The position numbers and the translations under genes were made by a program. Under the pieces are notes generated by a model. It did not search any database, was not told the origin of the DNA, and worked only from the letters and a program-made list of their open reading frames with translations. Below are positions 15,817 through 38,759 of a stretch of 64,000 nt of DNA, piece after piece; the stretch's first letter is position 1; every line of letters begins with the position of its first letter. The DNA comes from Burkholderiales bacterium (lineage in GTDB: Bacteria; Pseudomonadota; Gammaproteobacteria; Burkholderiales; WYBJ01), in the NCBI GenBank assembly GCA_022841915.1, contig JALHQN010000002.1, positions 338,724 through 402,723 of the forward strand, in the 5' to 3' direction.

Positions 15817-15842
15817 TGCCTGTGCTCCGTCGACCACGACCG

Positions 15843-16748: not shown

Positions 16749-16960
16749 GAGGGACTCCTCGACGAAGGGTGACTGGGGATGCGATTCGGCGGCCCGATGC
16801 AGCCGCGAAGAGGCGCTCGATGATACACCCCGGCCCAAAGGGTCGAAAACCACAGCAGCGGCCGGGCGGGCGTTCAGGTTTCCAGCTCGGCGGCACTGCG
16901 GTAGCATCCGGGCAACGCCGGCCTTCCCGGCAACCTACGCTGCCATCCCTGGAGAGAGCC

Positions 16961-18346: not shown

Positions 18347-18469
18347 ATCGTGCCCGCAGGGGATATTTCCCTGCGGGAGAGTCTCAGTGTCTTGCAGTGA
18401 ACGGCGTTGCCGGGGACGGTCGACTTGTTCCGTTCCCGGGTCTCATCAACCTCCATCCAAAGATCCGGC

Positions 18470-19729
18470 ATGGCCAAGATTCCCTCGCGCAACTTCGCAA
18501 CCGGCGCGCGTTGTCCGCTCGACGGCGTGCGCATCCTCGATTTGTCCCGCGTCATTGCGGGCAACATGGTGAGCCTGGCGCTGGCGGATTTCGGCGCCGA
18601 AGTCATCAAGGTCGAGCCTCCGGAGGGCGACGCCTTGCGCGACTGGATGGTGGCGGGCGTGGCCGCCAACTGGAAGGTCTACGCGCGCAACAAGAAGAGC
18701 GTCGGACTCAATCTGCGCAAGCCCGAGGGGCGCGAGATTCTGCTGCGCCTGGTCGAGACGGCCCAGGTCTTCATCGAAAATTTCCGTCCCGGCACCCTGG
18801 AGAAGATGGGGCTCGGCCCCGATGTCCTGCTGGCGCGCAATCCCAAGCTGGTGGTGATGCGCGTGTCCGGCTGGGGGCAGGACGGCCCCTTTCGCCACAA
18901 GCCCGGCTTCGGCACGCTGATCGAGGGCATGTCGGGCTTTGCCGCGATGAACGGTTTCCCCGATCGAGAGCCGGTGCTTCCGCCCACGCAGATGGCCGAC
19001 ATGTACGCGGGCTACATCGGCTCCATGGCGGTGATGGTGGCCTTGCGTGAAGTCGAGGTGAACGGCGGCAGCGGTCAGGTGATCGATCTGCCCTTGTTCG
19101 ATCCCCTGTTCGCAGCACTCGGGCCGCAGGCCGCCTCGTATCAGCTCAGCGGCAAGGTGCGGCCGCGCTCGGGCAGCCGCTCCACCACCGCAGCGCCCCG
19201 CAATGCCTATCGGACGCGGGACGACAAGTGGGTTTCGATGTCGGCGTCCACGCAGAAGATGACCGAGCGCCTGCTTGCCGCCATCGGACGGCCGGAGCTG
19301 ATCGACGACCCGCGCTACCGGACCAATGCGGACCGCCTGCGCAACGGCGACGAACTCGACGACATCATCGCGCAGTTCATACGCAAGATGGATCTGGCCG
19401 CTGCGCTCGAATTCTTCGACCAAGCCGAAGTTACGGTGGGACCGATCTACGACATCTCGCAGCTCATGCAAGATGAATATATCGCCGAGCGCGAGATACT
19501 GGCCAACTATCCCGACGAGCAGATGGGCGAGATCGCCATGCACTGCGTCGTGCCGAGGCTGCAAGGCACGCCCGGCGCGATCCGCAAGCCTGCGCCGACG
19601 CTGATCGGCGAAGACAACGCCCAGGTGCTCGCCGGCCTGGGTATCGATGACGCCCGGATCGAGGCCTTGATGGCGGCCGATGCCGTTTACCGCGGCCCTC
19701 AGCGCAAGCGCTCCGGCGGCGACGACTAG
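18470..19729 (+). CDS. family III CoA-transferase (CaiB/BaiF family)
   Basis: ORF 18407..19729. Start is ATG 18470 (residue 22). LDGVRILDLSRVIAGN...LADFGAEVIKVEPPEGD is the typical N-terminus. Confidence 0.9.
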   Translation: MAKIPSRNFATGARCPLDGVRILDLSRVIAGNMVSLALADFGAEVIKVEPPEGDALRDWMVAGVAANWKVYARNKKSVGLNLRKPEGREILLRLVETAQVFIENFRPGTLEKMGLGPDVLLARNPKLVVMRVSGWGQDGPFRHKPGFGTLIEGMSGFAAMNGFPDREPVLPPTQMADMYAGYIGSMAVMVALREVEVNGGSGQVIDLPLFDPLFAALGPQAASYQLSGKVRPRSGSRSTTAAPRNAYRTRDDKWVSMSASTQKMTERLLAAIGRPELIDDPRYRTNADRLRNGDELDDIIAQFIRKMDLAAALEFFDQAEVTVGPIYDISQLMQDEYIAEREILANYPDEQMGEIAMHCVVPRLQGTPGAIRKPAPTLIGEDNAQVLAGLGIDDARIEALMAADAVYRGPQRKRSGGDD

Positions 19730-19805
19730 GCCCGCTCGCTGGGCATCCCCAGGGGCGGCGCCGCGAGGGCCCGCCTGCCTCGACTTTTCACGGAGACCAA
19801 AGCGC

Positions 19806-20717
19806 ATGAAACCGAATCTGCCCGTCTGGCGCACCCTGCTCTATGTGCCGGTCAATGTCGAGAAGTTCGTGGACAAGGCGCATGTTCGCGGCGCCGACGT
19901 GATCCAGCTCGATCTGGAAGATGCGGTGCCGCATGCGGAGAAGGCTCATGCGCGCACGCTGGTGCAGAAGAATGCCGCCCGGGTACGGCGCGGCGGGGCC
20001 GACGTGCTGGTGCGCATCAATCGCCCCATCGCCATGGCGGTGCGGGATATCGAAGAGTCGGTTTGCCCCGAGGTGGATGCGTTCGCCATCACCAAGTGCG
20101 ACAGCGCCTCCCACATTCGACTGCTGGACGAACTGGTGAGCGAACTGGAGCAAAAGCGCGGCATGCCGATCGGGCACACCAAGTTCAATGCGATGGTGGA
20201 AACGCCGGATGCGTTCTTTCGCATCTACGAGATTGTCCGTGCGAGCGATCGCATCGTTGCGGCGAACATCGGCGGCGAGGATCTGGCGCTGAGCTGCAAT
20301 TTTCAGCCGACCGGGGAAGCGCTGCTCTATCCCAAGCAGCACATGGTGATCGCAGCCGCCTCGGCGGGGGTGATGCCGCTGGGCTTCATCGACAGCGTGG
20401 CCGGATTCGGGGATTGGGATGCGTTCCGCGCGATGGTGCGCCGTTCACGCGACTTCGGATTCATGGGCGCGAGCTGCATCCATCCCGGACAAGTCACGAT
20501 CGTGAACGAGGAATACACGCCGAGCGACGAGGAAGTCGCCTATGCGCGCAAGCTGATCGCCGCCGATGAGGAGGCCAAGCAGCAGGGCCGCGGCTCCTTC
20601 GCGGTCGATGGCAAGATGGTCGACATTCCGATCATCGAGCGCGCGCAGCGGCTGCTGGCCCGCTACGAGGCGATCAAGGCGCGCGAGGCGCGGACGATGG
20701 CGGCGGCGAAAGGTTGA
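19806..20717 (+). CDS. HpcH/HpaI aldolase / citrate-lyase beta (CitE-like) acyl-CoA lyase family protein
   Basis: ORF 19680..20717. Start is ATG 19806 (residue 43). LYVPVN...DVIQLDLEDAV and GGEDLA motifs. Confidence 0.85.
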   Translation: MKPNLPVWRTLLYVPVNVEKFVDKAHVRGADVIQLDLEDAVPHAEKAHARTLVQKNAARVRRGGADVLVRINRPIAMAVRDIEESVCPEVDAFAITKCDSASHIRLLDELVSELEQKRGMPIGHTKFNAMVETPDAFFRIYEIVRASDRIVAANIGGEDLALSCNFQPTGEALLYPKQHMVIAAASAGVMPLGFIDSVAGFGDWDAFRAMVRRSRDFGFMGASCIHPGQVTIVNEEYTPSDEEVAYARKLIAADEEAKQQGRGSFAVDGKMVDIPIIERAQRLLARYEAIKAREARTMAAAKG

Positions 20718-20794: not shown

Positions 20795-21811
20795 CTAGCG
20801 CCGCTGCTTGAGAAACTCCGTGTTCACGCAGTTGACCAGAGCGCCGTCGCGCAGATAGAAGTAGGCGGTCTGCGCAGCCTTGGTCCGCTGGTCGACATAG
20901 GCGTCCGGGCTGAAGAAGGCCGAATGCGGGTTGATCAGTACCCGCCCCTTCAACCACGGCTCGTTCGCCAACCAGGCGGCGATCATAGGGTCCTCGGCCT
21001 GCCCGGGTTCCTTCGGCAGCACGTCGAGTCCGACCGCCAGCAGCCGCCCCGAGCGCAGGCCTTCGAGCAAGGCTGCGGTATCGCATACCGGTCCGCGCGA
21101 GGTGTTGATCAGGTAGGCGCCCGGCTTGATCATCGCCACGGTGTCGGCATTGATCATCTTTCGGGTCTGATCGTTGAGGGGCGTGTGCATGTCGATGACA
21201 TCGGCCTGGGCGAGCAGCTCCTGCAGTGTGCGTGCGCGCGTGAAACCCAGTGCCAGCTCCGTGCCGCCCGGCAGCAACGGATCGTAGAAGACGACGTTCA
21301 TGCCGAAGGCGCGGGCGCGCAGCGCGGCGGCGGTGCCGATGCGGCCCAGGCCGATGACGCCGAAAGTGGCGCCCCGCAGCCTGCGTGCGGTGACATTGCG
21401 CTCGTGCGTCCAGTTGCCTGCCAGATTTTCTCGGAGCGCTGAATCCATCGCCGCCGTTCCGCGCGCGAAGGCAAGCATCATGGCGATGGCGCTGTCCGCC
21501 ACTTCGGTGGTGCCGTAGTCGGGGATATTGCACGCGGGAATGCCCGCCCGGCCCAGCGCGGGAAGATCCAGCACGTCGAAGCCGACGCCATTGCGCACGA
21601 CGATGCGGCAGCGCTCCAGGTGCGGGATCACGTCGGCGTTGATCGGCATGCGCGACACCACGAGCGCGTCGCAGGTCTTCCACAGATTCAGGTCGATCGC
21701 GTCGAATGCGTTCTGACGGGCGTGGATCAGCGTGACATCGCTGCCGACCGCCGCGGTTTCGATATCGAGCTGCTCGGGCTTCGCGTCCGGATACAGAATG
21801 GTGAATGGCAT
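20795..21811 (-). CDS. NAD-dependent 2-hydroxyacid dehydrogenase family protein (CtBP-like)
   Basis: 338 aa. GVIGLGRIGTAAALRA Rossmann motif and NTSRGPVCD. ATG 21811 with GGGAGA upstream. Confidence 0.8.
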   Translation of the reverse strand: MPFTILYPDAKPEQLDIETAAVGSDVTLIHARQNAFDAIDLNLWKTCDALVVSRMPINADVIPHLERCRIVVRNGVGFDVLDLPALGRAGIPACNIPDYGTTEVADSAIAMMLAFARGTAAMDSALRENLAGNWTHERNVTARRLRGATFGVIGLGRIGTAAALRARAFGMNVVFYDPLLPGGTELALGFTRARTLQELLAQADVIDMHTPLNDQTRKMINADTVAMIKPGAYLINTSRGPVCDTAALLEGLRSGRLLAVGLDVLPKEPGQAEDPMIAAWLANEPWLKGRVLINPHSAFFSPDAYVDQRTKAAQTAYFYLRDGALVNCVNTEFLKQRR

Positions 21812-22006: not shown

Positions 22007-22873
22007 ATGGCCTTGCGCTGGGTGTGCCTGCTTGCATGCGTGTTTGCTATGCCGTCGTTCGTGCATTCCGCCGACGTGGCCGAGGAAGTTTCGTTCTCGA
22101 GCGCGGACGGGACCACGACGCTGCGCGGATTTCTTTTCTCGCCGAGCACGCCAGGGCCATGGCCCGCCGTGGTGATGATGCATGGGCGCGCCGGCCCGTT
22201 CTCAACGGCGGCCAAGGGTGTTTACGACGCGTCGACCCTGTCGCTGCGGCACAAGCAGTGGGGGCGCTTCTGGGCCGAGCGGGGCTATCTCGCGTTGCAC
22301 GTGGACAGTTTCGGGTCGCGCGGCTATCCCGGCGGGTTTCCCATACGCAGCTACTCGCAGCGTCCGCCCGAGGTGAACGAGCAAAAGGTGCGGCCCTTGG
22401 ATGCCTACGGCGCGCTTGCGTATTTGCGCGGGCGCGGCGATGTCTTGAAGGACCGGATCGGTTTGCAGGGCTGGTCCAACGGCGCCATGGCCGCGTTGGC
22501 GACCCTGGATCGCGCCGCGCCGGGCATCTCGTCGCCCGATCCCGAGCGCGGCTTTCGCGCGGCACTCATCTTCTATCCAGGCTGCCGAGTTCAACTCGCC
22601 AAGGATGACTACCGGCCTTACGCGCCCGCCATCATGTTCATCGCGTCGAACGACGAGGAAGTGGCCCCTTTGCCGTGCAGCCAGTTGGCCGATCAGGTCA
22701 AGGCGCGCGGCGTGAAGGATTTCGAGATGGTTTGGTACGACGGGGCGACACACTCGTTCGACGATCCTGGAAAGCGGCGTCAGTCCGTGCCGGGCAACCG
22801 GGAGGCCCGCAGCGATTCGATGGTCCGCGCCGAGCAATTCTTCGAGACGCGCCTCAAATCCCCGGTGCCCTGA
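22007..22873 (+). CDS. dienelactone hydrolase family protein, secreted
   Basis: Signal peptide MALRWVCLLACVFAMPSFVHS/AD. VVMMHGRAGP and a GWSNGA nucleophile-elbow-like motif. AGGAAAAG ribosome-binding site. Confidence 0.7.
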   Translation: MALRWVCLLACVFAMPSFVHSADVAEEVSFSSADGTTTLRGFLFSPSTPGPWPAVVMMHGRAGPFSTAAKGVYDASTLSLRHKQWGRFWAERGYLALHVDSFGSRGYPGGFPIRSYSQRPPEVNEQKVRPLDAYGALAYLRGRGDVLKDRIGLQGWSNGAMAALATLDRAAPGISSPDPERGFRAALIFYPGCRVQLAKDDYRPYAPAIMFIASNDEEVAPLPCSQLADQVKARGVKDFEMVWYDGATHSFDDPGKRRQSVPGNREARSDSMVRAEQFFETRLKSPVP

Positions 22874-22918
22874 TTCCGGTGTCGGCAATTCGTGCGGCGA
22901 TCGCCATGCGATGCGGCT

Positions 22919-23710
22919 TCAGTCCGGCGCGGCAATTCGTGCGTAGAGATCCGTCCCGTTCAGCCAGTGCTCGTGGTGGCTTTCGTCGCGCACGTTCCAC
23001 GGGTCTGCCGAGAACGCGATATCGGAGGTCTGCGTCAACAGCCAACGGTAGAACCTCGCGACGGTCGCCGGGGCGATGAGCTGGCCCGCATCGCGCAATC
23101 GCCGGTAGTCTTCGGCATCCGGGTACAGCCCCGGATCGGCGGCGATCTGAGCGGCGATCATCGGCGTATCGACAGGGCTCGGCACCGCCGAGCCGACGGC
23201 GATGCCGCGCGGCGCAAGCTCGATCTTCAGGCACTGCTGCAGCATGTGACTCGCTGCTTGGGAGACGCAGTACGCCGTGGCGGACTGCCTGGGGCGCGTC
23301 GCCGAGTTCGAGCCGACGAAGAGCACTCGCGATCCTGGCTGCAGCCAGGGCAGCAGATCGAGCGTGAGGAACAGGCGCGCGTCGACATTGGTATCGAGTA
23401 TGCGCCGCCAAGTGGCGACGGTTATGCTCCCAAGCGGCTCGATGGCATGCATGCCCGCGGCGTGAACGAGGAAGCGCACCCTGTCCGCGGAGCGCAGTGC
23501 GCTGCAGATCCGACTGCGCCCGCTGGTCGTCGAAACATCTGCGGCAACCGGCTCGATCGTGCCCCCCGACATCGATGCAGTCGCAAGCAGCGGATCCAAC
23601 CGCCGACCGATGGCGATCACGCGCAAGGGCAGTTCAGCCAACGACCGGGCGACGGCTCGACCTAGGCCGGAGCCTGCGCCGGTAACGATCGCGATGTCGC
23701 AACGGCTCAT
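22919..23710 (-). CDS. atypical SDR-family oxidoreductase (YxxxQ instead of YxxxK)
   Basis: This is the C-terminal 263 aa of the 411-aa track ORF. ATG 23710 overlaps the LysR stop (ATGA). TGAGSGLG cofactor motif. The catalytic region reads SATAYCVSQAAS (Y147...Q151, codon CAA verified on the minus strand). Confidence 0.75.
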   Translation of the reverse strand: MSRCDIAIVTGAGSGLGRAVARSLAELPLRVIAIGRRLDPLLATASMSGGTIEPVAADVSTTSGRSRICSALRSADRVRFLVHAAGMHAIEPLGSITVATWRRILDTNVDARLFLTLDLLPWLQPGSRVLFVGSNSATRPRQSATAYCVSQAASHMLQQCLKIELAPRGIAVGSAVPSPVDTPMIAAQIAADPGLYPDAEDYRRLRDAGQLIAPATVARFYRWLLTQTSDIAFSADPWNVRDESHHEHWLNGTDLYARIAAPD

Positions 23711-24612
23711 GTTCGCGGCCGCTCCGCGTGCCCGTTCGAACCCCCGAACGGCGCCGTATCCATCGCCAGCCGGATGAACGCATCGACGAGCGAACGATTG
23801 CGGCGAGCAGCGAGGCAGACGACGTAGGCTTCGATGACGATCGTCGCATCCGTGACCTTGAGCAGGCGGATGTTCTCGTGGGGGGCGAACTCCGTTTCGC
23901 CGATCGCGCCGAGCCCGATGCCGCGGGCCACGGCCTCGCGCACGGCTTCGCGGACGTTGATCTCCATGATGGGGCGTATGCGTACGCCCGCCTCGACGAG
24001 CGCCGATTCGAATGCGCGCCGAGTGGCCGAACCGGCGTCGCGCAGGATGAAGCCTTCGCCTTCCAGATCGGCAAGTCGCAGGGATCTGCGCTTGGCCAGG
24101 CGATGGGTATGCGGCACCATGATTCGGACCGGATGTCGATCGTAGAGCATGCAAAAATACCGTGAGTCCGTCACGGCATCGGCAACCACGCCGACATCGA
24201 AGTCGAACCCGGTCAGTCCGGCCATGATGGCATCGCGCGGTGCCACGCTCACCGAGAGTTCGACGCGCGGATAGCGATTGCGAAAAGCCTGGGTCAGCGC
24301 CATGACGTCATGCGGACCGACGGCGCCGAGGCGCAGCCGGCCGCCGTCGTTGCGCCCGATGCCGCGCAGATAGCTGATCGCCTCGGCCTCGTGGCCGTAG
24401 AGACCTTGGGTGATCGTGAAGAGCGATCGGCCCACGTCGGTCAGTTCGACCGTTCGCCCGCGCCGATAAAAGAGTTCGACCTTGAAATAGTCTTCGAGCG
24501 TCTTGATGTGCGCCGAAATCGTCGGCTGACCGACGTTGAGAGCCTTCGCCGCGTGCGTGAAGCTGCTTTGCGAGGCAACCATGTGGAAGGCCTTGAGCCA
24601 CTTTTCGTACAT
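23707..24612 (-). CDS. LysR-family transcriptional regulator (PhnR-like by position)
   Basis: N-terminal wHTH FTHAAKALNVGQPTISAHIKTLEDYF. About 300 aa, divergent from the phnA-like gene. Confidence 0.92.
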   Translation of the reverse strand: MYEKWLKAFHMVASQSSFTHAAKALNVGQPTISAHIKTLEDYFKVELFYRRGRTVELTDVGRSLFTITQGLYGHEAEAISYLRGIGRNDGGRLRLGAVGPHDVMALTQAFRNRYPRVELSVSVAPRDAIMAGLTGFDFDVGVVADAVTDSRYFCMLYDRHPVRIMVPHTHRLAKRRSLRLADLEGEGFILRDAGSATRRAFESALVEAGVRIRPIMEINVREAVREAVARGIGLGAIGETEFAPHENIRLLKVTDATIVIEAYVVCLAARRNRSLVDAFIRLAMDTAPFGGSNGHAERPRT

Positions 24613-24641
24613 CGATCAAATCAATGGAAGATGAAGAATTT

Positions 24642-24654
24642 TCGATTTTATCGA
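24642..24654. promoter_or_regulatory. candidate LysR-type T-N11-A box (TCGAT-N3-ATCGA)
   Basis: tcgattttatcga has 5-bp perfect inverted arms with T-N11-A spacing. It lies 30 bp upstream of the LysR start in the divergent intergenic region. Confidence 0.4.
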
Positions 24655-24670
24655 TGATAGGTGCGGTGCT

Positions 24671-24861
24671 AGTGTCCTGAGTCGGTGATTCGTTGACATT
24701 TTGCCGAACGGTATCGCTACTGCCTCAGCGACAAAAGTGTCGAAATCGTCGTCAGACGCGAAGGAAACCGCAGCCAGGTTGGACACCTGGCGAGGATTTC
24801 CGACAAAGTATGGCGCCGATTCTCGGCGCTTTTGGTCAGCGAATTTCTGACTCAGGACACT
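24671..24861. repeat. pair of perfect 13-bp inverted repeats (agtgtcctgagtc / gactcaggacact) 165 bp apart
   Basis: Read directly: 24671-24683 and 24849-24861 are exact reverse complements. Both lie in the LysR/phnA intergenic region. Confidence 0.9.
24812..24833 (+). terminator. intrinsic-terminator-like hairpin in the phnA leader
   Basis: GCGCCGA-ttc-TCGGCGC (7-bp GC-rich stem at 24813-19/24823-29) followed by TTTT (24830-33). It sits 75 nt upstream of the phnA start. The T-run is present only on the + strand. Confidence 0.35.
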
Positions 24862-24907
24862 GTGGTTGGGCAATTGTGGGCAAGCTACAAAACGAGGAGA
24901 CCACCGC

Positions 24908-26173
24908 GTGGCGACGAGCGACAAGCCGAAGGTCCGGGTGAACGGTACGGAGTATGGTTGGCCCCGCAAGCCGGTGGTGGTCGTGTGTATCGACGGCGGG
25001 GATCCGGCGTATTTCGATCACGGCCTCGCTCACGGTTACATCCCGAACGTCGCCCGCTTCATGAAGCAGGGCTTCAGCGCGGTCGCCGACGGCACCGTGC
25101 CGAGCGTCACGTGCACCAACAACATGTCGATCATCACGGGAGCGCCCGCTTCCGTGCACGGCATTTCGGGCAACTTCTACCTCGATCCTGCCACCGGCGA
25201 AGCGGTGGTGATGACCGGTCCGGAGCTGCTGCGCGGGGAAACCATCTTCGCCCAGTTCGCCCGCGCCGGTGCCCGAATTGCTGCGATCACCGCGAAGGAC
25301 AAACTGCGCCGCCAACTCGGCAAGGGGCTCGACGTCTCGCGCGGGAACATCTGTTTTTCGTCCGAGCACGTCGAGCGGTGCACGCGGGCCGAGCACGGCA
25401 TCGAGAATGCGCTCGAATTCGTCGGCATGCCCAAGCCCGACATGTATTCCATGGCGTTGTCGCTGTTCGTGCTCGAGGCGGGTGTGCGCATTCTCGAACG
25501 CGATCGGCCCGACATCCTGTATCTGTCATTGACCGACTGGGTGCAGCACAAGTATGCCCCGGGTGAGCCGGAGGCGATCGAGTTCTATCGCAAGATCGAC
25601 GACTGCTTCGGGCGGCTCGCCGATCTCGATGCCATCGTGGCGCTCACCGCCGATCACGGGATGAACGACAAGTCCAAACCGGACGGAACCCCCAATGTCG
25701 TCTGGCTGCAAGACATCCTGGACGCCGAGTTCGGCCAGGGCGACACCAAGGTGATATGTCCGATTACGGATCACTTCATCGCGCATCACGGTGCCCTGGG
25801 GGGATTCGTGCGTGTGTACTGCCGCGGCGGACGCGCGACGCCCGAAGCGATCATGCGGCTGATCGAACCCGTGCCCGGTCTGGCGGAGATCTACGACCGC
25901 CACACGGTCTGCAAGAAGTTCGACCTGCCGCTCGATCGCGAAGGCGATGTCGCCGTGATCTCGGCGCGCGACGTATGCGTCGGCGGTTCGGAGAAGGAGC
26001 ATGATCTGTCCGGTCTCGGGGGCCATCGGTTGCGCACCCATGGCGGCGTCACGGAAGCGCGCGTACCGTTCGTCGTGAGCGAGCCGGTGTCGGATGCCCA
26101 CAGGCTGAAAGCGACGAACGGGCCGCTCAACAGCTATCAGCTCTTCGACTACGCGATCAACGGGACGCGGTAG
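24908..26173 (+). CDS. phnA: phosphonoacetate hydrolase (alkaline-phosphatase superfamily)
   Basis: ORF 24866..26173 begins with TTG. GTG 24908, preceded by GAGGAG, is preferred. Blocks match recalled PhnA: VVVCIDGG, VPSVTCTNNMSIITGAPASVHGISGNF, TAKDKLR, YLSLTDWVQHKYAPGEPEA, LTADHGMN, HHGALG, HDLSGL, THGGVTEARVP. Confidence 0.85.
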   Translation: MATSDKPKVRVNGTEYGWPRKPVVVVCIDGGDPAYFDHGLAHGYIPNVARFMKQGFSAVADGTVPSVTCTNNMSIITGAPASVHGISGNFYLDPATGEAVVMTGPELLRGETIFAQFARAGARIAAITAKDKLRRQLGKGLDVSRGNICFSSEHVERCTRAEHGIENALEFVGMPKPDMYSMALSLFVLEAGVRILERDRPDILYLSLTDWVQHKYAPGEPEAIEFYRKIDDCFGRLADLDAIVALTADHGMNDKSKPDGTPNVVWLQDILDAEFGQGDTKVICPITDHFIAHHGALGGFVRVYCRGGRATPEAIMRLIEPVPGLAEIYDRHTVCKKFDLPLDREGDVAVISARDVCVGGSEKEHDLSGLGGHRLRTHGGVTEARVPFVVSEPVSDAHRLKATNGPLNSYQLFDYAINGTR

Positions 26174-26210
26174 CGCACTGCGTGACCCGACACGCCTTCA
26201 GGGAGGAGCG

Positions 26211-27305
26211 ATGAGCAGAACCGGCAAGGCGGTCGTCTACGATGCGCCCAATCAGCCCTTCGTCGTCAGGGAATATCCGCTCCGACCGACGCGAAAGGGC
26301 GAAGTGCTCGTGCGCATCAGCATGTCGACGATCTGTCGCTCCGACATCCATTCCTATCAGGGCCATCGGCCCAATCCCTGCCCGGGTGTTCTGGGGCACG
26401 AGATCATCGGCATCATCGAAGAGCTCGGGGACGGCGTAGAGCGCGACATGCGGGGCGACACGCTTGCGGTCGGTGATCGCATCACGTGGAGTGAGTATTT
26501 CATCCCGGGTGCCAACTACTACAGCGACGTGCTCGACATTCCGCAGAAGTCGCCGGGCGTGGACAAATACGGTCACATGGCCGTCGATACCGACCCGCAC
26601 TTCCACGGCGGCTTTGCCGAATACTGCTACATCCTGCCGCAGTCGTGGATACTCAAGCTGCCCGACGTGTTGAGCGACGAGGAAGCGACGCCGGTCAACT
26701 GCGGCGTCGCCACCATGATCGCGGTCACCGAAGCCGCAGCGATCGGCATGGGAGACACCGTCGTCGTGCAGGGACTCGGCCTGTTGGGTCTCTACGGTTG
26801 TGCGATAGCGCGCGCGCGCGGGGCGCGCCTCGTCATCGGGCTCGACACCGTGGCTTCACGCCGGGAATTGGGCAGGCGCTTCGGTGCAGACATCACGCTC
26901 GACCCCTCTGCGATGGATGAGGTCGAACTGGTCAAGCGGGTGCGCGAAGCTTGCCGGCCCGATGGCGCAGACGCCGTGATCGAGGTCTGCGGGTATCCCG
27001 AAGTCATTCCGGCAGGCCTGCAGTTCTTGCGCATCGGCGGGTGCTATACGCTCGGTGGGGTGGTCAACCCGAACTCGATCGTGCGCTTCGACGCCAACGT
27101 GCTCTTGCGCAAGCTCATCACCCTGCGGGGTGTGCACAACTACCACCCGCGTCATCTCATTCAGGCCCTCGACTTCGTCGTTGCCAATCGGGAGCGATTT
27201 CCGTTTCGCGATCTCGTCGACGGCAAGTACGGGCTGAACGAGGTCGGCCAGGCGATGCACGATGCGGCTGAACGCAAAGTGTTGCGAGCGGCAATCGTGC
27301 CCTGA
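26211..27305 (+). CDS. zinc-dependent MDR alcohol dehydrogenase (phosphonate-cluster-associated type)
   Basis: GGGAGGAG ribosome-binding site. Catalytic Zn ligands are Cys42 (ICRSD) and His63-Glu64 (GHE). VVVQGLGLLG Rossmann motif. No 4-Cys structural-zinc loop is visible. Confidence 0.8.
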   Translation: MSRTGKAVVYDAPNQPFVVREYPLRPTRKGEVLVRISMSTICRSDIHSYQGHRPNPCPGVLGHEIIGIIEELGDGVERDMRGDTLAVGDRITWSEYFIPGANYYSDVLDIPQKSPGVDKYGHMAVDTDPHFHGGFAEYCYILPQSWILKLPDVLSDEEATPVNCGVATMIAVTEAAAIGMGDTVVVQGLGLLGLYGCAIARARGARLVIGLDTVASRRELGRRFGADITLDPSAMDEVELVKRVREACRPDGADAVIEVCGYPEVIPAGLQFLRIGGCYTLGGVVNPNSIVRFDANVLLRKLITLRGVHNYHPRHLIQALDFVVANRERFPFRDLVDGKYGLNEVGQAMHDAAERKVLRAAIVP

Positions 27306-27307
27306 GG

Positions 27308-28804
27308 ATGACGATCGCGGAGCAGCCAATGAGCGCGAAAGAACGAAGTATCGTGTCCGAGCCCGACATCGGCTACTCGCCGCGCGGCCTTTACATCGGC
27401 GGGCGTTGGGAGGCGGCAGCCGACGGGCGCACGTTCGCAAGCATCAATCCGTCGACCGGCCGCAAACTCGGTGACGTGCCGTATGCGGCCGCCGCGGATG
27501 TCGATCGTGCGGTGCAGGCTGCAAAAATGGCGTTTCGCGACTGGAGTCGCGTTGGCGTCAAGGAGCGTGCGCGATGTCTGGAACTGCTGGCGAAGCGCAT
27601 TCGCGAAAACCGCAATGAACTCGGCCTGATGGATGCGCTCGACGCCGGCAATGCCGTCGTCGGGATGCGCGCCGACATGGACTGGACGGCCGACAGCCTC
27701 GAGTACTTCGCCGGACTCATCACCGAGATCAAGGGCGAAACGAGTTCGCAAGGGCCGCGACATCTCAACCTCACGCTGCGCCAGCCCTATGGCGTGGTCG
27801 GCAAGATCAATCCGTTCAATCATCCGTTCCGCTTTTGCGCGGAGAAAGCGGCTGCGCCGCTCGCGGCAGGCAATTGTCTGGTGATCAAGGGCTCGGAGCA
27901 GGCGCCCTTGTCGAGCCTGAAGCTCGGGGAACTCTGCGATGGTGTTTTTCCGCCCGGCGTGGTGAATATCGTCACCGGGGATGCCGTGGCGGGCGAAGCG
28001 ATCGTGCGGCACCCGGACGTGCCGCGCATCGGGCTCGTCGGTTCGGTGGATGCGGGCCGACGCGTCGCCATGGCTGCTGCCGAGCAGCTCAAGCGCGTGA
28101 GCCTCGAACTGGGCGGCAAGAATCCGATCGTCATCTTTCCGGATGCCGATCCGAAGAAGGCCGCCGCTGCGGCCCTCAAGGGCATGAACATGAACCGGCA
28201 GGGCCAGTCGTGCAGCTCGACCAGCCGGGTGTTCGTGCATGCTTCCCTGCACAAGGCCGTGCTCGACGAGATCGTCCGACTCGCCCGTGCGTTGCCGGTC
28301 GGTTTCCCCTGGATCGAAAGCAACGAGCTCGGACCGATCGTGTCCGAAAAGCAGTTCCAGCGTGTGATGGGCTACATCGAAGCGGGCAAGCAGGAGGGCG
28401 CCGAACTCGTTACCGGAGGCGCAAGGCCTACGGCGCCGGCGCTTGCAGGCGGCTACTTCATCCAGCCGACGGTGTTCGACGGCGTCCGCGACGCCATGCG
28501 CATCGCGCGCGAGGAAATCTTCGGGCCTGTCGTGGCCGTCATGACGTGGACGGACGTCGACGACGTGTTCTCGCGCGCCAATGCCCTTTCGTACGGTCTG
28601 ACCGCGGCCATCGTGACCAACGATCTGGCGCAGGCGATGGAGGCAGCGCACCGACTCGACGCAGGCTACGTCTGGATCAACGGCAATGGTCGTTACCTCG
28701 GTGCGCCCTATGGTGGTTGGAAGTCGAGCGGTCTCGGTGTCGAAGAGACCTTCGATGAGCTTCTGAGCTACACCCAAATCAAGAACGTTCACATGCGCTG
28801 GTAA
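27308..28804 (+). CDS. NAD(P)-dependent aldehyde dehydrogenase (phosphonoacetaldehyde dehydrogenase PhnY-like by context)
   Basis: ELGGKNP (catalytic Glu) and QGQSCSSTSRVFV (catalytic Cys). It starts 2 nt after the ADH stop. The alternative start at 27329 (MSAKER...) is not excluded. Confidence 0.8.
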   Translation: MTIAEQPMSAKERSIVSEPDIGYSPRGLYIGGRWEAAADGRTFASINPSTGRKLGDVPYAAAADVDRAVQAAKMAFRDWSRVGVKERARCLELLAKRIRENRNELGLMDALDAGNAVVGMRADMDWTADSLEYFAGLITEIKGETSSQGPRHLNLTLRQPYGVVGKINPFNHPFRFCAEKAAAPLAAGNCLVIKGSEQAPLSSLKLGELCDGVFPPGVVNIVTGDAVAGEAIVRHPDVPRIGLVGSVDAGRRVAMAAAEQLKRVSLELGGKNPIVIFPDADPKKAAAAALKGMNMNRQGQSCSSTSRVFVHASLHKAVLDEIVRLARALPVGFPWIESNELGPIVSEKQFQRVMGYIEAGKQEGAELVTGGARPTAPALAGGYFIQPTVFDGVRDAMRIAREEIFGPVVAVMTWTDVDDVFSRANALSYGLTAAIVTNDLAQAMEAAHRLDAGYVWINGNGRYLGAPYGGWKSSGLGVEETFDELLSYTQIKNVHMRW

Positions 28805-28908
28805 CTTCGGCGCCGAGCAGGACGTCATCGGCTTGTAATACCCCTGTCCTACTATCGCGCGAATCTGAAGGGTTCTTCAGTGCGCTACAAGACCAGGAGA
28901 CAAGCAGC

Positions 28909-30486
28909 ATGAACATTCGAGCATGGCGTTCCCGCATCCTGCCTACCACGATCGCCACCTTGGCTTTGCTGGGGGGGCTGTTTCAGTCTGCTGCGGCAAG
29001 CGCGCAGGTGCGCGAGCTTAGAGTCGGTGTCGCTTCGCACGTGCGCGGCCTCGATGTGCAGGAAGAAACCGGCAACAACGCCGCCCAGATGCTCCATCAG
29101 ATCTTCGATACGCTGATCGAGCGCGACAACTTCGCTGCCCCCCTGAAGTTCGGGCCCGGACTCGCCACGAGTTGGCGTATGGTTTCGCCGACCACGATGG
29201 AGCTGACGCTGCGCGACGGCGTCGTGATGCACGACGGCACCACGCTGGACGCCGAGGACGTCAAGTTCTCGCTCGAACGCGTGATCGATCGCAAGGATCC
29301 GCGCTATCGCAGTGCCCACGGCCGGTTCTTCTACAACCTCAAGGGGGTCGATGTGGTCGATCGGCTTACCGTGCGAATCCATACGCACCGGCCGGATCCT
29401 CTGCTCGAGACACTCCTGTCGGCACGCAATGCCGGCATCACGTCGAAGGAGTATGTGCAGAAAATCGGTGCCGACAAGGCGGCGCTGTTGCCGGTCGGCT
29501 CGGGGCCGTACAAGGTCGACAGCCTGCGCCCGAACGAGGTGCTCGTGCTGAGCCGCCACGACAAGTTCTGGGGTCCGCGCCCGCCGTTCGAGCGAATCAC
29601 CTACACGCGCATTCCCGAAGTCGCTGCGCGCGTAACGGCGCTCGTCAATCGCGAGGTCGACTTCATCGTGAACGTGCCGCCCGACCAGGAAGGCGCGGTC
29701 AAACGGGTGAAGGGCTTCAAGCTGGTTGGTGCGCCCTTGCCGGTGTTTCACATCTGGGTGCTCAACATGAGTCATCCCGTCATGGCGAACCCGGAGTTTC
29801 GCAAGGCGCTCAATCTTGCCGTCGATCGCGAAGCGCTGGTGAAGGGCTTGTGGAACGGCAGAGGCCTCGCGCCCAAGGCGCATCAGTTCAAGGAGTACGG
29901 CGAGCCGCTCTTCATGCCGGATCTCAACCACTACCGCTACGATCCGAAGGCAGCGCAGGCGCTGTTGAAGAAGGTCGGCTACAAGAACGAACAGGTCACC
30001 ATCACCTTCTTTCCCGAGTACTACCTTTACGGCAACTACGCTGCCGTCGCCGTCGCCGACATGTGGAAGAAGCTCGGCATCAATGTGAAGATCCAGCAGA
30101 GCGAGCCTGCGTTCAGCAACGCCGACCATACCAAAGTCATGATCCAGCCTTGGTCGAATCCGCTCTACTATCCGGATCCGATGGGGGTCTTCGACACGCA
30201 CTGGTCAGCCGAGAGCTGGGTCACCAAGAAGGGATTGTGGAAGCCCGATCTGCCGGAATGGGCGAGCACCTATGACAAGGCCCGCTTCTCGACAGATTCG
30301 AACGAGCGTCGTGCCGCCTATCGCAAGCTGCTGGAAATGGGCCAGGAGCTGAGCGGTTGGATCGTGCTCTACCAGCCGTACGAATCGTTCGCCATGAACG
30401 AGAACATCGAGTGGCGCATTCCGACAGCCCAACGGCCGTACGAGCTTACGTTCCGCGCCGGTCAGATAAGCTTCAAAGCGAAGTAG
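28909..30486 (+). CDS. ABC transporter substrate-binding protein, family 5 (peptide/opine/nickel type)
   Basis: Sec signal MNIRAWRSRILPTTIATLALLGGLFQSAAASA/QV. 525 aa with DppA/OppA-like architecture. CAGGAGA ribosome-binding site. Confidence 0.85.
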   Translation: MNIRAWRSRILPTTIATLALLGGLFQSAAASAQVRELRVGVASHVRGLDVQEETGNNAAQMLHQIFDTLIERDNFAAPLKFGPGLATSWRMVSPTTMELTLRDGVVMHDGTTLDAEDVKFSLERVIDRKDPRYRSAHGRFFYNLKGVDVVDRLTVRIHTHRPDPLLETLLSARNAGITSKEYVQKIGADKAALLPVGSGPYKVDSLRPNEVLVLSRHDKFWGPRPPFERITYTRIPEVAARVTALVNREVDFIVNVPPDQEGAVKRVKGFKLVGAPLPVFHIWVLNMSHPVMANPEFRKALNLAVDREALVKGLWNGRGLAPKAHQFKEYGEPLFMPDLNHYRYDPKAAQALLKKVGYKNEQVTITFFPEYYLYGNYAAVAVADMWKKLGINVKIQQSEPAFSNADHTKVMIQPWSNPLYYPDPMGVFDTHWSAESWVTKKGLWKPDLPEWASTYDKARFSTDSNERRAAYRKLLEMGQELSGWIVLYQPYESFAMNENIEWRIPTAQRPYELTFRAGQISFKAK

Positions 30487-30519
30487 CTGCGGCGAACCGA
30501 GGAGGCGGTCCCGTCATCC

Positions 30520-31440
30520 ATGCTGCACTTCCTGCTCTGGCGACTCGGCCGCGCGGCGCTCACGATCGCCCTCGTTCTGGTAATCTGCTTTGTCGCCGTG
30601 CGCGGGACGGGCTCGCCCGTCGACATCCTGTACCCCGAGGATGGGACGCCCGAGCAGCGTGCCGAACTCGAAAAGCAATGGGGGCTCGATCGGAGCCTGC
30701 CGGAGCAGTTCGCGGTCTACGTCGCCAACCTCGCCCGAGGCGAGTTCGGTGTGAGCATCATCGAGCGGCGACCCGTGATCGACGTCTATGCAGAGAAGCT
30801 CGCGCCCACCCTGCAGCTCGCCGGTTGCGCCCTCGTGATCGGCATCGCGGTCGGCATCCCGCTCGGCGTATTGGCCGCACTGCGCCGAGGTCGCGCCACC
30901 GCTCGGCTTGCCATGGCACTGGCATTCACCGGCTACGCCGTGCCCCATTTCATCATCGCCATCGTGCTCATTCTCGTATTCGGCTATCACCTCAACTGGC
31001 TCCCGAGCACCGGGGCAGCGACGCCCGCGCACTACATCCTGCCCGCGATAACGTTGGCGTTGCCTCTCATCGCAGCGATCGCTCGCTACATGCGCAGCAC
31101 CATGCTCGATGTCATGAGTCAGGACTATGTCCGCACTGCGAGGGCGAAAGGGGTGCGTGAACCAAGAATCGTCGCTCTGCATGTGATCCGCAATGCACTG
31201 TTGCCCCTGATCACGGTCCTCGGGCTGGAAGTCGCGGGACTGATCAATGGGTCACTGATCGTCGAAACGGTGTTCTCTTGGCCGGGACTGGGCAAGGTGT
31301 TGACCGGTTCGGTCTCCCGGCGGGATTTCCCGGTGCTGCAGTTCGGCGTGATCGCATACTCGGCGGTCGTCGTGTTCATCAATCTTCTGGTGGACGTCCT
31401 CTATTCCGTGGCCGACCCGCGCGTGCGCGTCGAGGCATGA
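30520..31440 (+). CDS. ABC transporter permease (DppB/OppB-like)
   Basis: 306 aa with six hydrophobic segments. The EAA-type loop DYVRTARAKG is present. Confidence 0.88.
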   Translation: MLHFLLWRLGRAALTIALVLVICFVAVRGTGSPVDILYPEDGTPEQRAELEKQWGLDRSLPEQFAVYVANLARGEFGVSIIERRPVIDVYAEKLAPTLQLAGCALVIGIAVGIPLGVLAALRRGRATARLAMALAFTGYAVPHFIIAIVLILVFGYHLNWLPSTGAATPAHYILPAITLALPLIAAIARYMRSTMLDVMSQDYVRTARAKGVREPRIVALHVIRNALLPLITVLGLEVAGLINGSLIVETVFSWPGLGKVLTGSVSRRDFPVLQFGVIAYSAVVVFINLLVDVLYSVADPRVRVEA

Positions 31441-31450
31441 GGCACCATCC

Positions 31451-32368
31451 ATGACGACAGCTGCGGACCCCACGGTTTCCCGGATTCCGGCTCCCGCGCC
31501 CGCCGCACCGGAGTTCGCGCTGCGCCGTCGGCTGGCCTTTCGGCGCATGCCGATCAGCATCAAGATCTGTTCCCTGCTCGCACTGGCTTTCGTATTCACC
31601 GCCCTCTTTGCGCCGTGGCTGACGCCTCACGACCCGGACGCAACGCAGATCCTGGCCAAGCTCAAGCCGCCGGCCTGGATGGAAGGCGGCGAGGCGGCCC
31701 ATCTGTTCGGCACGGATCAGCTCGGCCGTGATCTGCTCTCGCGTTGCATCTACGGCGTGCGCGTAAGCGTGGGCCTCGCCCTGTTCGGTCTCATCGTGGG
31801 TTGCCTGATCGGAACGACCCTCGGTGTCGTGAGCGGGCTCCTCGGTGGTCATGTCGATCGCGCCATCATGATGCTGGTCGACGTATTCATCAGTGTGCCG
31901 AACCTGCTCATCGTGCTGGTCGGCATCGCCGCGTTCGGAACCGACATCGTCGTGCTCGTGGTGCTTATCGGCCTGGCGCGCTGGGAATCCTATGCGCGCA
32001 TCGTGCGCGGGCAGGTATTGCAGGTGCGCGAAATGCCCTTCATCGAAGCGAGCCGTGCGCTCGGGGGATCGCACGCGTGGATCGCGATGCGCCATGTGTT
32101 GCCGAACATCGCAGGCCCGTTGATCGTGTTGCTGACGCTCAACTTTCCATCGATCCTGCTGCTGGAGTCGTCGTTGTCCTTTCTCGGCATCGGGGTGCAG
32201 CCGCCGACGGCCTCGCTCGGCAGCATGGTCGGCGACGGACGGGATCATCTGATATTCGCTTGGTGGGTGGCCGTTGCGCCGGCCCTCGTGATCGTCGCCA
32301 TCACGTTCATCGTGCAGATGCTTGGCGACTGGTTGCGCGACGTACTGGACGTGCGCGTCGATGATTGA
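31451..32368 (+). CDS. ABC transporter permease (DppC/OppC-like)
   Basis: 305 aa. The FIEASRALG loop and GTDQLGRDLLSR N-terminal motif are typical of DppC. Confidence 0.88.
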   Translation: MTTAADPTVSRIPAPAPAAPEFALRRRLAFRRMPISIKICSLLALAFVFTALFAPWLTPHDPDATQILAKLKPPAWMEGGEAAHLFGTDQLGRDLLSRCIYGVRVSVGLALFGLIVGCLIGTTLGVVSGLLGGHVDRAIMMLVDVFISVPNLLIVLVGIAAFGTDIVVLVVLIGLARWESYARIVRGQVLQVREMPFIEASRALGGSHAWIAMRHVLPNIAGPLIVLLTLNFPSILLLESSLSFLGIGVQPPTASLGSMVGDGRDHLIFAWWVAVAPALVIVAITFIVQMLGDWLRDVLDVRVDD

Positions 32369-33422
32369 GACATCCGAAGAGCATCGTGGGCATGCGCCCT
32401 CTCGGGTGCTGGAAGTTTGCGACCTGCGCGTACATCTTGCGCACGAGGAGCGCGAGCTGGAGGCGGTTGCGGGGGTCAGCTTTCACGTCGATGCGGGCGA
32501 GACCCTGGCGCTGGTCGGCGAGTCGGGCGCCGGCAAGTCCGTGACGGCGCTGTCGATCATGCGGCTCGTGCGGGCGGGCGGCCATACCGCAGCGGTGCGT
32601 ACCAGCGGACACCTCCGCTTTCGGAATGAGGCTGGCGAAACCGCCGATCTGCTGACATTGGACGATGAAGCCATGCGCGCCGTGCGCGGCCGCTCCATCG
32701 CCATGATCTTCCAGGAGCCGATGACTTCCCTCAATCCGGTGTTGCGGGTCGGCGACCAGATCGCCGAAGGCATTGTCGCTCACGATCGGATCGGCTGGCG
32801 CGCTGCGTCGGTGCGGGCCCTGGAGATGCTCGAGCTGGTGGGTATTCCCGATCCGCGCGCTCGGCAGCGAGCTTTTCCGCACGAGCTCTCCGGAGGGATG
32901 CGCCAACGAGTGATGATCGCCATCGCGCTTGCGTGTCGTCCCCGACTGCTCATCGCCGACGAACCCACCACCGCGCTCGATGTCACGATTCAGGGCCAGG
33001 TGCTGGACCTGATACGCAGACTCCAGTCGGAACTGCGCATGGCGGTGCTTTTCATCACCCACGATCTGGGTGTCGTTGCCCAGATGGCCGATCGAGTCGC
33101 GGTGATGTATGCCGGTCGCATCGTCGAGGAAGCTCCGGTCGAGGCGTTCTTCGAGAGCCCGGCGCATCCCTATTCGGCCGGGCTGCTGCGCTCCATGCCC
33201 AATCCGGATCCGCGGCGGCCGGCACAGGCGCTGCAGCCGATTCGGGGCACGGTCCCGAGTCTGGATCAGGTGCCGCCCGGTTGTGCTTTCCAGCCTCGGT
33301 GCGATCGCGCCGCGGGCGAGGATTGCACGCAAAGGCGCCCGGTGCTGGAGCCATTCGGCGAGCGACGTGCCGTGCGATGCTGGCGCCCTCACCCGGTGTT
33401 CACGACAGGAACCGGCAAGTGA
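32361..33422 (+). CDS. ABC transporter ATP-binding protein (DppD-like)
   Basis: ORF 32322..33422. ATG 32361 overlaps the permease stop by 8 nt. Walker A GESGAGKS, signature LSGGMRQR, and a C-terminal oligopeptide-type extension. Confidence 0.9.
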
Positions 33423-34414
33423 GTTCAGACCCGCTCATCCGTGCCGAGTCGCTGACTACGGCCTTTACGGTCGGCCGGTCGTTCATGAAGCGCGCGGTTC
33501 TGCGTGCGGTCGACGAGGTCAGCCTGGATATTCGCGCGAACGAAGTGCTCGCGTTGGTGGGCGAATCCGGGTCCGGGAAGACGACGTTCGGGCGCTCGCT
33601 CCTGCGTCTGGTCGAACCCACGGCGGGCGCCATCTGGTATGACGGTCGCGACATTACCCACTTGCCGGGCGACGAGATGCGTGCGCTTCGTCGGCAGATG
33701 CAGATCGTGTTCCAGGATCCGTTCGCCTCCCTGGATCCGCGCATGAGCGTCGGCGAAATCGTCGGCGAGGGTCTGCGCATCCACGGCATGGGCGCAGCAT
33801 CGGTACGGGCGCAGCGCGTGGCGAACGTGCTCGAGCAGGTGGGGCTGGGTGCAGACCACGCGCGCCGCTATCCGCACGCCCTCTCGGGCGGTCAGCGGCA
33901 GCGCGTCGGCATCGCCCGGGCCCTCGCGGTGGAGCCCCGCTTCATCGTCGCCGACGAGCCCGTGTCCTCGCTCGATGTTTCCATTCAGGCGCAGATTGTC
34001 CAACTCCTCGTCGAGTTGCGCCGGCGCCTCGGGCTGACGATGCTCTTCATCACGCACAACCTGGGTGTGGTTCGTATCCTCAGCGACCGGGTGGCCGTGA
34101 TGTACCTGGGTCGGCTGGTGGAGATTGCGCCCACTGCCACGCTCTTCGAACGACCGGCGCATCCCTACACGCGCAGCTTGCTTGCGAGCATACCGTTGCC
34201 CGATCCCAAGGCGCGGCGACCGCTTGCCGCGCTCCGCGGAGAACTGCCGAGCGGGCTCAACCCGCCGAGCGGCTGTGTGTTCCGTACCCGGTGTCCGCAC
34301 GCGATCGAAGCGTGCGCGAGCGCCCGCCCTGAACTGCGAGCACTCGGGCCCGGACATCAGGCGGCATGCTCACGACCTGAGATCACCGCGCTTCCCTTCC
34401 AAGGCTTTGCATAG
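33419..34414 (+). CDS. ABC transporter ATP-binding protein (DppF-like)
   Basis: In the frame of track ORF 32933..34414. GTG 33419 (residue 163) overlaps the DppD-like stop (GTGA). Walker A GESGSGKTT and signature LSGGQRQR. Confidence 0.88.
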   Translation: MSSDPLIRAESLTTAFTVGRSFMKRAVLRAVDEVSLDIRANEVLALVGESGSGKTTFGRSLLRLVEPTAGAIWYDGRDITHLPGDEMRALRRQMQIVFQDPFASLDPRMSVGEIVGEGLRIHGMGAASVRAQRVANVLEQVGLGADHARRYPHALSGGQRQRVGIARALAVEPRFIVADEPVSSLDVSIQAQIVQLLVELRRRLGLTMLFITHNLGVVRILSDRVAVMYLGRLVEIAPTATLFERPAHPYTRSLLASIPLPDPKARRPLAALRGELPSGLNPPSGCVFRTRCPHAIEACASARPELRALGPGHQAACSRPEITALPFQGFA

Positions 34415-34427
34415 GAACGAACGAATC

Positions 34428-37591: not shown

Positions 37592-37621
37592 TGAATCGGG
37601 AGACGGCGTGGAGCGTGCTGC

Positions 37622-38716: not shown

Positions 38717-38759
38717 GATTTTACAACCATTCTGGCCTCTGACTGCTTCTGCGTGGCGG

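Follow-up and report, generated by a model that had tools for sequence, protein, structure and literature searches.

A divergent PbfG-type alcohol dehydrogenase gene beside phnA, predicted to open a 2-hydroxyethylphosphonate degradation route in mostly uncultured Proteobacteria

A gene at positions 26211-27305 of a 64-kb stretch of a Burkholderiales genome (64,000 nucleotides of contig JALHQN010000002.1, hereafter the window) encodes a zinc alcohol dehydrogenase (ADH) of the medium-chain dehydrogenase/reductase (MDR) type, which lies between phnA and an aldehyde dehydrogenase (ALDH) gene. This ADH is most probably a 2-hydroxyethylphosphonate (HEP) dehydrogenase and a divergent member of the PbfG/TIGR03366 family. 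The original prediction had it oxidise HEP to phosphonoacetaldehyde that feeds the ALDH and PhnA, a proposal now supported at the family level by the biochemistry of PbfG, a residue signature, profile scores, a tree and gene context. The function is not novel and repeats the published result for PbfG (PMC13576164). New here are a proteobacterial branch of PbfG that is divergent, lacks the structural zinc and is missed by current annotation models, its different ALDH partner, and its conserved linkage with a phosphonate monoester hydrolase (PMH) and an Opp-type importer. The three genes at the centre of the analysis are:

24908-26173, forward strand: phnA, phosphonoacetate hydrolase (TIGR02335), cleaving the C-P bond to give acetate and phosphate
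26211-27305, forward strand: MDR zinc ADH, divergent PbfG/TIGR03366 member, predicted NAD+-dependent HEP dehydrogenase
27329-28804, forward strand: ALDH, betaine-aldehyde-dehydrogenase-like, 491 aa (Pfam Aldedh, E 8.6e-147)

The ADH gene starts with ATG, carries a Shine-Dalgarno sequence (GGAGG) 6 nt 5′ of the start and encodes 364 aa. All residues by which it had been recognised as an MDR zinc enzyme are present (Cys42, His63-Glu64 and GLGLLG at 188-193), and the Pfam domains agree: ADH_N (PF08240, GroES-like) with E 1.2e-16 and ADH_zinc_N (PF00107, Rossmann) with E 1.6e-22. Cys164 supplies the third zinc ligand, and an aspartate that closes β2 (Asp212) suggests that NAD+ is preferred. Among 8000 candidates scored in a word-index search, 2001 were homologues at E<=1e-20 (best 100-73% identity), and a full scan of 1.84 billion cluster representatives returned 464 matches at E<=1e-30; with homologues so numerous, the reading frame is not a chance one. 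The phnA stop codon ends at 26173, leaving the 37 nt originally given between phnA and the ADH gene. The 2 nt given for the other side hold for the longest ALDH reading frame (27305 to 27308), but the likelier ALDH start is the ATG at 27329. The real gap is probably 23 nt, because that ATG has GGAG 6 nt upstream and gene callers report the 491-aa product for contigs of identical sequence. At either ALDH start the two genes are operonic.

The statement that no biochemical assignment was known for such enzymes has been out of date since September 2026, when Piazza et al. (Protein Sci, 15 September 2026; PMC13576164) described PbfG, a pf00107 zinc dehydrogenase. The enzyme of Cellulosimicrobium protaetiae (WP_154797266) converts HEP to phosphonoacetaldehyde with a kcat of 9.9 s-1, a KM of 0.10 mM and a kcat/KM of 88,500 M-1 s-1; it prefers NAD+ and does not accept ethanol, 1-propanol, glycolate, threonine or 2-aminoethylphosphonate (AEP), so that HEP dehydrogenase activity of high specificity has been shown in another member of the family (PMC13576164). 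The reductive direction is faster (290,000 vs 88,500 M-1 s-1), and addition of PhnX pulls the reaction to phosphate release (PMC13576164). In an AlphaFold3 model the catalytic zinc sits on Cys45, His66 and Cys166 and HEP on Ser47, Arg56, His124 and Asn298 (PMC13576164); counted from the first Cys, these residues stand at +2, +11, +21, +79, +121 and +253. PbfG genes recur beside phnX or phnY-phnA, in clusters that often lack phnW and pbfD (PMC13576164). Marine dissolved organic matter and phosphonoglycans are reported to contain HEP as one of their main phosphonates (literature cited in PMC13576164). Until 2026 the sole documented catabolic fate of HEP was C-P lyase.

The best curated model for the ADH is TIGR03366 (285.1 bits), followed by Tdh at 109 bits. 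TIGR03366 (HpnZ_proposed) is the model whose title, 'putative phosphonate catabolism associated alcohol dehydrogenase', the original prediction had correctly given, and JGI uses this name for several close homologues of the ADH. Core members of the model score 374-413 bits and include sequences labelled by NCBI as Planctomycetaceae, Pirellulaceae, Fuerstiella and Gemmata. The clade of the window ADH is compact: in the scan of 1.84 billion representatives it formed one 50% cluster, whose representative P0121 is 63% identical to the ADH, and further relatives reach 42% at most. Aligned by hhalign, the window clade and the core TIGR03366 members match over their full length with a probability of 100% and 38% identity.

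We aligned 122 sequences (121 full-length representatives and the window ADH) and found that 88 of them carry a seven-residue signature: C42, S44, R53, H63, H122 (in KYGH), C164 and N310 (in HNY), alongside which E64 of the ADH is also listed. S44, R53 and H122 are invariant in the window clade. Family spacing from the first Cys is +2, +11, +21, +79/80 and +121/122, and the Asn of HNY follows at +268 in the ADH, at +251, +252 or +254 in short forms and between +250 and +273 in nearly all members. The catalytic zinc ligands of the ADH (C42, H63 and C164) lie in invariant family columns and are spaced +21 and +122, against +21 and +121 in PbfG; S44 at +2, R53 at +11 and H122 at +80 (PbfG His124 at +79) match by spacing, not by direct alignment.

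In a rough neighbour-joining tree every signature sequence, the ADH among them, fell into one clade with two or three non-signature sequences. The ADH shares 30.5-42.0% identity (mean 35.3%) with family members that retain the four structural-zinc cysteines. Identity within the TIGR03366 family averaged 39.3% with a minimum of 29.3%, in agreement with the mean of 40.7% and minimum of 27.9% published for the PbfG family (PMC13576164). A core member in a Pirellulaceae genome lies in the gene order DUF5690, ADH, FAD oxidase, haloacid dehalogenase (HAD) hydrolase, which fits the pbfD/phnX cluster type of PMC13576164. We conclude that TIGR03366 and PbfG are one family, of which the window ADH is a peripheral member. 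No Cellulosimicrobium entry was among the protein matches obtained with either the short/high-GC family alignment or the best TIGR03366 scorer (P0164) as query; the named matches were Planctomycetota, including Gemmata and Fimbriiglobus, and one Hydrogenedentes. Likewise, none of 494 retrieved proteins screened for the PbfG residue numbering together with four Trp and two Tyr (deduced from the published extinction coefficient) matched.

The ADH was compared with PbfG and with other known enzymes. The ADH and PbfG are both pf00107 MDR proteins with Cys, His and Cys as zinc ligands; the Ser, Arg and His reported to bind HEP, and probably the Asn, have counterparts in the ADH; both occur in degradative clusters with phnA and an aldehyde dehydrogenase, often without phnW, and the NAD+ preference of PbfG is predicted for the ADH as well. 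The ADH differs in its identity of about 30-42% to family members, in the loss of the four structural-zinc cysteines, in a 13-residue insertion (about 233-245, seen against core members by hhalign) and in belonging to a proteobacterial, mostly uncultured clade. The closest solved structures, TM0436 of Thermotoga maritima (PDB 1VJ0, 151 bits) and Tdh (2D8A and 2DFV, 94 bits), have the MDR fold and catalytic zinc site in common with the ADH. However, 1VJ0 has Asp, Ile and Trp-Val in place of Arg53, His122 and His-Asn (309-310), and both 1VJ0 and Tdh retain the structural-zinc cysteines that the ADH lacks. The Cys-to-His spacing is 21 residues in the ADH, against 25 in Tdh. The PhpC-type HEP dehydrogenase/phosphonoacetaldehyde reductase (pf00465) catalyses the reaction proposed for the ADH and follows the same pathway logic, with PhnX or PhnY-PhnA acting next, but has the unrelated fold of an iron-type alcohol dehydrogenase and is about 300-fold less efficient oxidatively (PMC13576164). 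The phnWAY pathway of Sinorhizobium meliloti, which turns AEP into acetate and phosphate by way of phosphonoacetaldehyde and phosphonoacetate, has the same last enzyme (PhnA) and the same middle-step chemistry as the route proposed for the window, whereas the entry in the window would be dehydrogenation of an alcohol rather than transamination of an amine, and the ALDH is of BADH-like (betaine-aldehyde-dehydrogenase-like) rather than TIGR03250 lineage.

Gene context was counted in the best 80 of 379 related loci in the genome collection. PhnA, ALDH, PMH and PhoD were counted by tblastn, and other reading frames were called with a filter on third-position GC (GC3) for this high-GC DNA; the single-linkage families used in this analysis merged some components of ATP-binding cassette (ABC) transporters, and PhnY fell in with PhnE. 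All 80 loci come from metagenome-assembled genomes, with no cultured isolate, and many are named after lakes, soils or sediments. They belong mainly to Burkholderiales and other Betaproteobacteria (Rubrivivax, Aquabacterium, Ideonella) and also to Alpha- and Gammaproteobacteria, Methylomirabilota and Gemmatimonadota; the closest, at 96% identity, is a Burkholderiales metagenome-assembled genome.

The phnA gene stands directly upstream of the ADH gene in 73 of the 80 loci. Two arrangements were seen. In type A (about 27 loci) phnA and the ADH gene are followed by a BADH-like ALDH gene whose product is about 64-83% identical to that of the window. Type B has the order phnR (GntR type, TIGR03338), phnA, ADH, phnD, phnC, phnE, phnE and canonical phnY (TIGR03250, 853 bits), often with a divergent AEP transporter. 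An ALDH, either an orthologue of the window enzyme or canonical PhnY, turned up in 48 of the 80 loci, many of them truncated. The regulator varies, with a LysR protein in the window and about ten loci and GntR-type PhnR (TIGR03338) in about 34. Neither phnW nor an AEP transporter was detected in the 64-kb window by tblastn, and the claim that the ADH takes the place of AEP transamination thus stands for the window. For the clade as a whole the claim fails: 66 of the 80 loci have no phnW near the ADH gene, but 14 have one (NF010006, 593 bits) within about 9-10 kb, in about nine of them immediately after the ADH gene, so that in some loci the ADH supplements the AEP route rather than replacing it.

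Both partner enzymes bear on the proposed route. PhnA scores 534.9 bits on TIGR02335 (cut-off 407.55), covering profile positions 2-406 of 408; its gene starts at GTG 24908 with GAGGAG upstream, and the product has 421 aa as gene callers give. The ALDH had been called PhnY-like, a description that fits its position and two anion-binding residues and does not extend to orthology: its best NCBIfam model is BADH (436-438 bits), and it reaches 230 bits on TIGR03250 (PhnY), for which the cut-off is 635.65, whereas the true PhnY of a related locus (L021) scores 853 bits. When aligned with the S. meliloti PhnY sequence (PDB 4I3T), Cys295, Glu260 and Asn164 of the ALDH correspond to the catalytic Cys291, Glu254 and Asn158. 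Four residues of PhnY, Arg108, His159, Arg290 and Arg447, are reported to bind the phosphonate (Agarwal et al. 2014), and each of these positions is Arg or His in the 4I3T sequence. His159 and Arg447 have equivalents in His165 (in an unusual PFNHP motif) and Arg455 of the ALDH, both kept in 23 of 23 orthologues. Since the ALDH occupies the place of PhnY in sister loci, we infer that it may be a non-orthologous phosphonoacetaldehyde dehydrogenase, a functional analogue of PhnY.

In the proposed mechanism, the hydroxyl of HEP would bind the catalytic zinc, which has Cys42, His63 and Cys164 as its ligands, the phosphonate group would be held by Ser44, Arg53, His122 and Asn310, and hydride would pass to NAD+ (at GLGLLG and Asp212) to give phosphonoacetaldehyde. 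The equilibrium favours HEP, and the ALDH would pull the reaction forward by irreversible oxidation of phosphonoacetaldehyde to phosphonoacetate, which PhnA would hydrolyse to acetate and phosphate. The net gain to the cell would be phosphorus, a C2 unit and 2 NADH, and no transaminase would be needed. The cluster is of a catabolic kind, and phosphonoacetaldehyde has no visible source in the window other than the ADH.

The operon continues beyond the ALDH gene. Eleven genes run on one strand from phnA (24908) to a PhoD-like gene (end 37591), with a largest gap of 104 nt and three start/stop overlaps; those downstream of the ALDH gene are:

28909-30486, forward strand: family-5 substrate-binding protein (SBP5; peptide/opine/nickel type) of an ABC importer (Pfam SBP_bac_5, E 4e-72)
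30520-31440 and 31451-32368, forward strand: two ABC permeases (NCBIfam Opp/Nik/Gsi types, all under cut-off)
about 32361-33422 and 33419-34414, forward strand: two ABC ATPases (NCBIfam OppD/OppF/DppF types)
34428-35960, forward strand: PMH (PehA, alkaline-phosphatase superfamily; NF045661)
35957-37591, forward strand: PhoD-like phosphodiesterase/phosphatase (Pfam PhoD, E 7e-58, and PhoD_N)

No NCBIfam equivalog reached its cut-off for the SBP5 gene, the orthologues of which share 73-85% identity in nine related loci and 54% in one more. The GTG at 33419 of the second ATPase gene overlaps the preceding stop codon, as the GTG at 35957 of the PhoD-like gene overlaps the PMH stop (TGA, 35958-35960). 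The PMH scores 627 bits on NF045661, under the cut-off of 900, and 464 bits over its full length to the solved PMHs 2VQR (Rhizobium leguminosarum) and 2W8S (Burkholderia caryophylli PehA); it contains the formylglycine motif CGPSR (C-x-P-x-R). Its N-terminus (MARPEMNVLLIVVDQ) shows no signal peptide by eye, and the enzyme appears from this to be cytoplasmic, while the N-terminus of the PhoD-like protein is signal-like and contains RR. An SBP5-type transporter accompanies phnA and the ADH gene in 10 of the 80 loci, among them all six with an ALDH that matches the window enzyme at 82% identity or more. In each of the six loci long enough to show it (L005, L009, L036, L050, L060 and L062), the transporter comes with a PMH. 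PhoD orthologues follow the PMH gene in L036 and L062 and precede it in L009; in L016 an orthologue lies upstream in opposite orientation.

In nature, HEP is reported in the form of polysaccharide esters (literature cited in PMC13576164). Our literature search, which covered titles and abstracts on both enzymes, retrieved no report that links a PMH to phnA or HEP. PMH/PehA enzymes serve as promiscuous model hydrolases, and we know of no native substrate for those that have been characterised. We tentatively suggest, with low confidence, that the array could be a route for esterified HEP such as sugar esters from phosphonoglycans or dissolved organic matter: the co-transcribed Opp-type importer would take up the monoester, the cytoplasmic PMH would free HEP, and ADH, ALDH and PhnA would mineralise it. 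If this were true, PMH/PehA enzymes would gain a physiological substrate class.

Several observations weigh against HEP as the substrate of the window ADH. Family membership, the residue signature and the conserved linkage to phnA and an ALDH are established here, whereas it is a prediction that this divergent clade, without the structural zinc, keeps HEP as its substrate. The ADH falls under the TIGR03366 cut-off (285.1 vs 328.1 bits), and the clade representative P0121 is likewise under it (288 bits). Its likeness to PbfG WP_154797266 is a matter of published residue positions, not of pairwise alignment, and the Asn of HNY (N310 in the ADH) is, by spacing alone, the probable equivalent of PbfG Asn298 (+253). 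Clusters with PbfG named in the main text of PMC13576164 belong to Actinomycetota, Planctomycetota, Bacteroidota, Gemmatimonadota and Verrucomicrobiota, with Proteobacteria unnamed, and the structural zinc site of PbfG is described there as fully conserved with Tdh. All four structural-zinc cysteines are absent from the ADH, in which residues 97-114 (window 26499-26552) read FIPGANYYSDVLDIPQKS, although the length of the lobe is kept. In the ALDH, Arg108 and Arg290 of PhnY are replaced by Trp119 and Ser294, a loss of two of the four residues reported to bind the phosphonate, and databases (JGI for cluster members) annotate the protein as betaine-aldehyde dehydrogenase. A shift of substrate is possible because the clade is only about 35% identical to the core and lies under the cut-off.

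The loss of the structural-zinc cysteines is not confined to the window. At this lobe 77 family representatives have C-x2-C-x2-C-x(6-8)-C, and the cysteines are gone in 11 signature sequences, counting the ADH and P0121. P0134, the closest relative outside the clade (53% identical over residues 4-240), retains them, and the loss therefore looks recent. Another family member without them is P0141 (306 bits on TIGR03366), encoded in a SusD-containing cluster (L087, 1-11825) with the glycan-related genes GH16 (glycoside hydrolase family 16) and Laminin_G_3 and a major facilitator superfamily (MFS) transporter. No phnA or phnX was visible around P0141 in that interval; the cluster may point to a connection of HEP use with the degradation of polysaccharides.

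These departures leave room for a different hydroxy compound as the substrate, such as hydroxymethyl-, 2-hydroxypropyl- or 2,3-dihydroxypropylphosphonate, or the alcohol that the PMH frees from an imported ester; in the last version ADH and ALDH would dispose of the leaving group, and PhnA would handle phosphonoacetate from another route. The divergence of the clade, at about 35% identity to the core and under the TIGR03366 cut-off, the BADH-like ALDH with two PhnY arginines gone and the presence of a PMH and an Opp-type transporter in the same array are all compatible with such a substrate. However, the residues reported to bind the phosphonate of HEP are kept in the ADH, Asn298 by its probable equivalent, and its tie to phnA in 73 of 80 loci mostly occurs where there is no PMH. 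Many of these loci have canonical PhnY, whose sole known substrate is phosphonoacetaldehyde, and PhnA needs phosphonoacetate, for which the ADH followed by the ALDH is the only evident source in the cluster. The rejection of ethanol, 1-propanol, glycolate and threonine by PbfG (PMC13576164) points the same way, and we regard a substrate other than HEP as rather unlikely.

The direction of the reaction can also be questioned. An equilibrium in favour of HEP, the faster reductive reaction of PbfG (290,000 vs 88,500 M-1 s-1) and the occurrence of two PbfG homologues in biosynthetic clusters of Actinoplanes (PMC13576164) would suit a phosphonoacetaldehyde reductase that serves HEP biosynthesis or buffers and detoxifies the aldehyde. 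Against this, the window has neither a phosphoenolpyruvate (PEP) mutase nor a phosphonopyruvate decarboxylase, nor phnW to make the aldehyde from AEP, and the ADH gene is flanked by those of two catabolic enzymes, one of which uses up the aldehyde and the other the product formed from it. Nothing points to biosynthesis, since the one gene of the PEP-mutase superfamily in the window is PrpB, a methylisocitrate lyase (479 bits), and a physiological role as reductase has very little chance of being correct. An ordinary alcohol or amino-alcohol module (choline-like to betaine-aldehyde-like to acid) that happens to adjoin phnA and plays no part in phosphonate metabolism is what the public names 'zinc-binding dehydrogenase', 'alcohol dehydrogenase' and 'betaine-aldehyde dehydrogenase' would imply. 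Such a module is very unlikely indeed given the context statistics: the adjacency of phnA and the ADH gene persists across Beta-, Alpha- and Gammaproteobacteria, Methylomirabilota and Gemmatimonadota (73 of 80 loci), phosphonate regulators (TIGR03338 and TIGR03339-like), PhnCDE transporters and PhnY co-occur with it, and the signature matches the phosphonate-binding residues of PbfG.

Oxidation of HEP by the ADH, as the preferred reading, would extend the PbfG route to a large, mostly uncultured proteobacterial clade (379 loci in the genome collection) and would mean that the route can use an aldehyde dehydrogenase other than PhnY. Clade members bear the NCBI-sourced names 'zinc-binding dehydrogenase' or 'hypothetical protein'; the former is all that NCBI offers because the clade lies under the TIGR03366 cut-off, and gene surveys based on TIGR03366 would for that reason undercount HEP catabolism. 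The linkage of PMH and Opp-type importer suggests a testable lead on the use of esterified HEP and on the native role of PMHs.

Upstream of phnA, a divergently transcribed gene encodes the regulator:

23707-24612, reverse strand: LysR-family regulator, divergent from phnA (Pfam HTH_1 and LysR_substrate)

Its best NCBIfam model is TIGR03339, 'aminoethylphosphonate catabolism associated LysR' (270 bits, under the cut-off of 341), and orthologues with 49-63% identity occupy the same divergent place in about ten related loci. The protein is a probable substrate-responsive activator of the operon. A scan of 22800-38800 for promoters and terminators was uninformative: no site resembled a promoter, and terminator-like sites were no more numerous than in shuffled sequence.

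The LysR gene adjoins a short-chain dehydrogenase/reductase (SDR) gene at 22919-23680 (reverse strand), beside which a dienelactone-hydrolase-family protein is encoded at 22007-22873 (forward strand). In four related loci (L031, L044, L048 and L050) a conserved SDR (51-58% identity) is likewise encoded upstream of phnA, so the SDR may belong to the phosphonate system. A D-2-hydroxyacid dehydrogenase (pfam02826) is encoded just upstream of phnR-phnA-ADH in 14 betaproteobacterial loci (e.g. L034, 6785-7807), and a window paralogue of 37% identity lies at 20795-21811 (reverse strand), about 3 kb upstream of the regulator. The same Pfam family contains PbfF, the racemase of 1-hydroxy-2-aminoethylphosphonate (HAEP); no pbfA was noticed beside the dehydrogenase gene in related loci. 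Further upstream, the PEP-mutase-superfamily gene at 15843-16907 might have signalled phosphonate biosynthesis or PalA, but its product is a methylisocitrate lyase that scores above the model cut-off, and both readings were rejected. This PrpB gene is part of a cluster at 14809-20717 with an MmgE/PrpD-family dehydratase, a family III CoA-transferase and an HpcH/citrate-lyase-β-like lyase, which looks like a methylcitrate or C5-dicarboxylate (itaconate-like) pathway.

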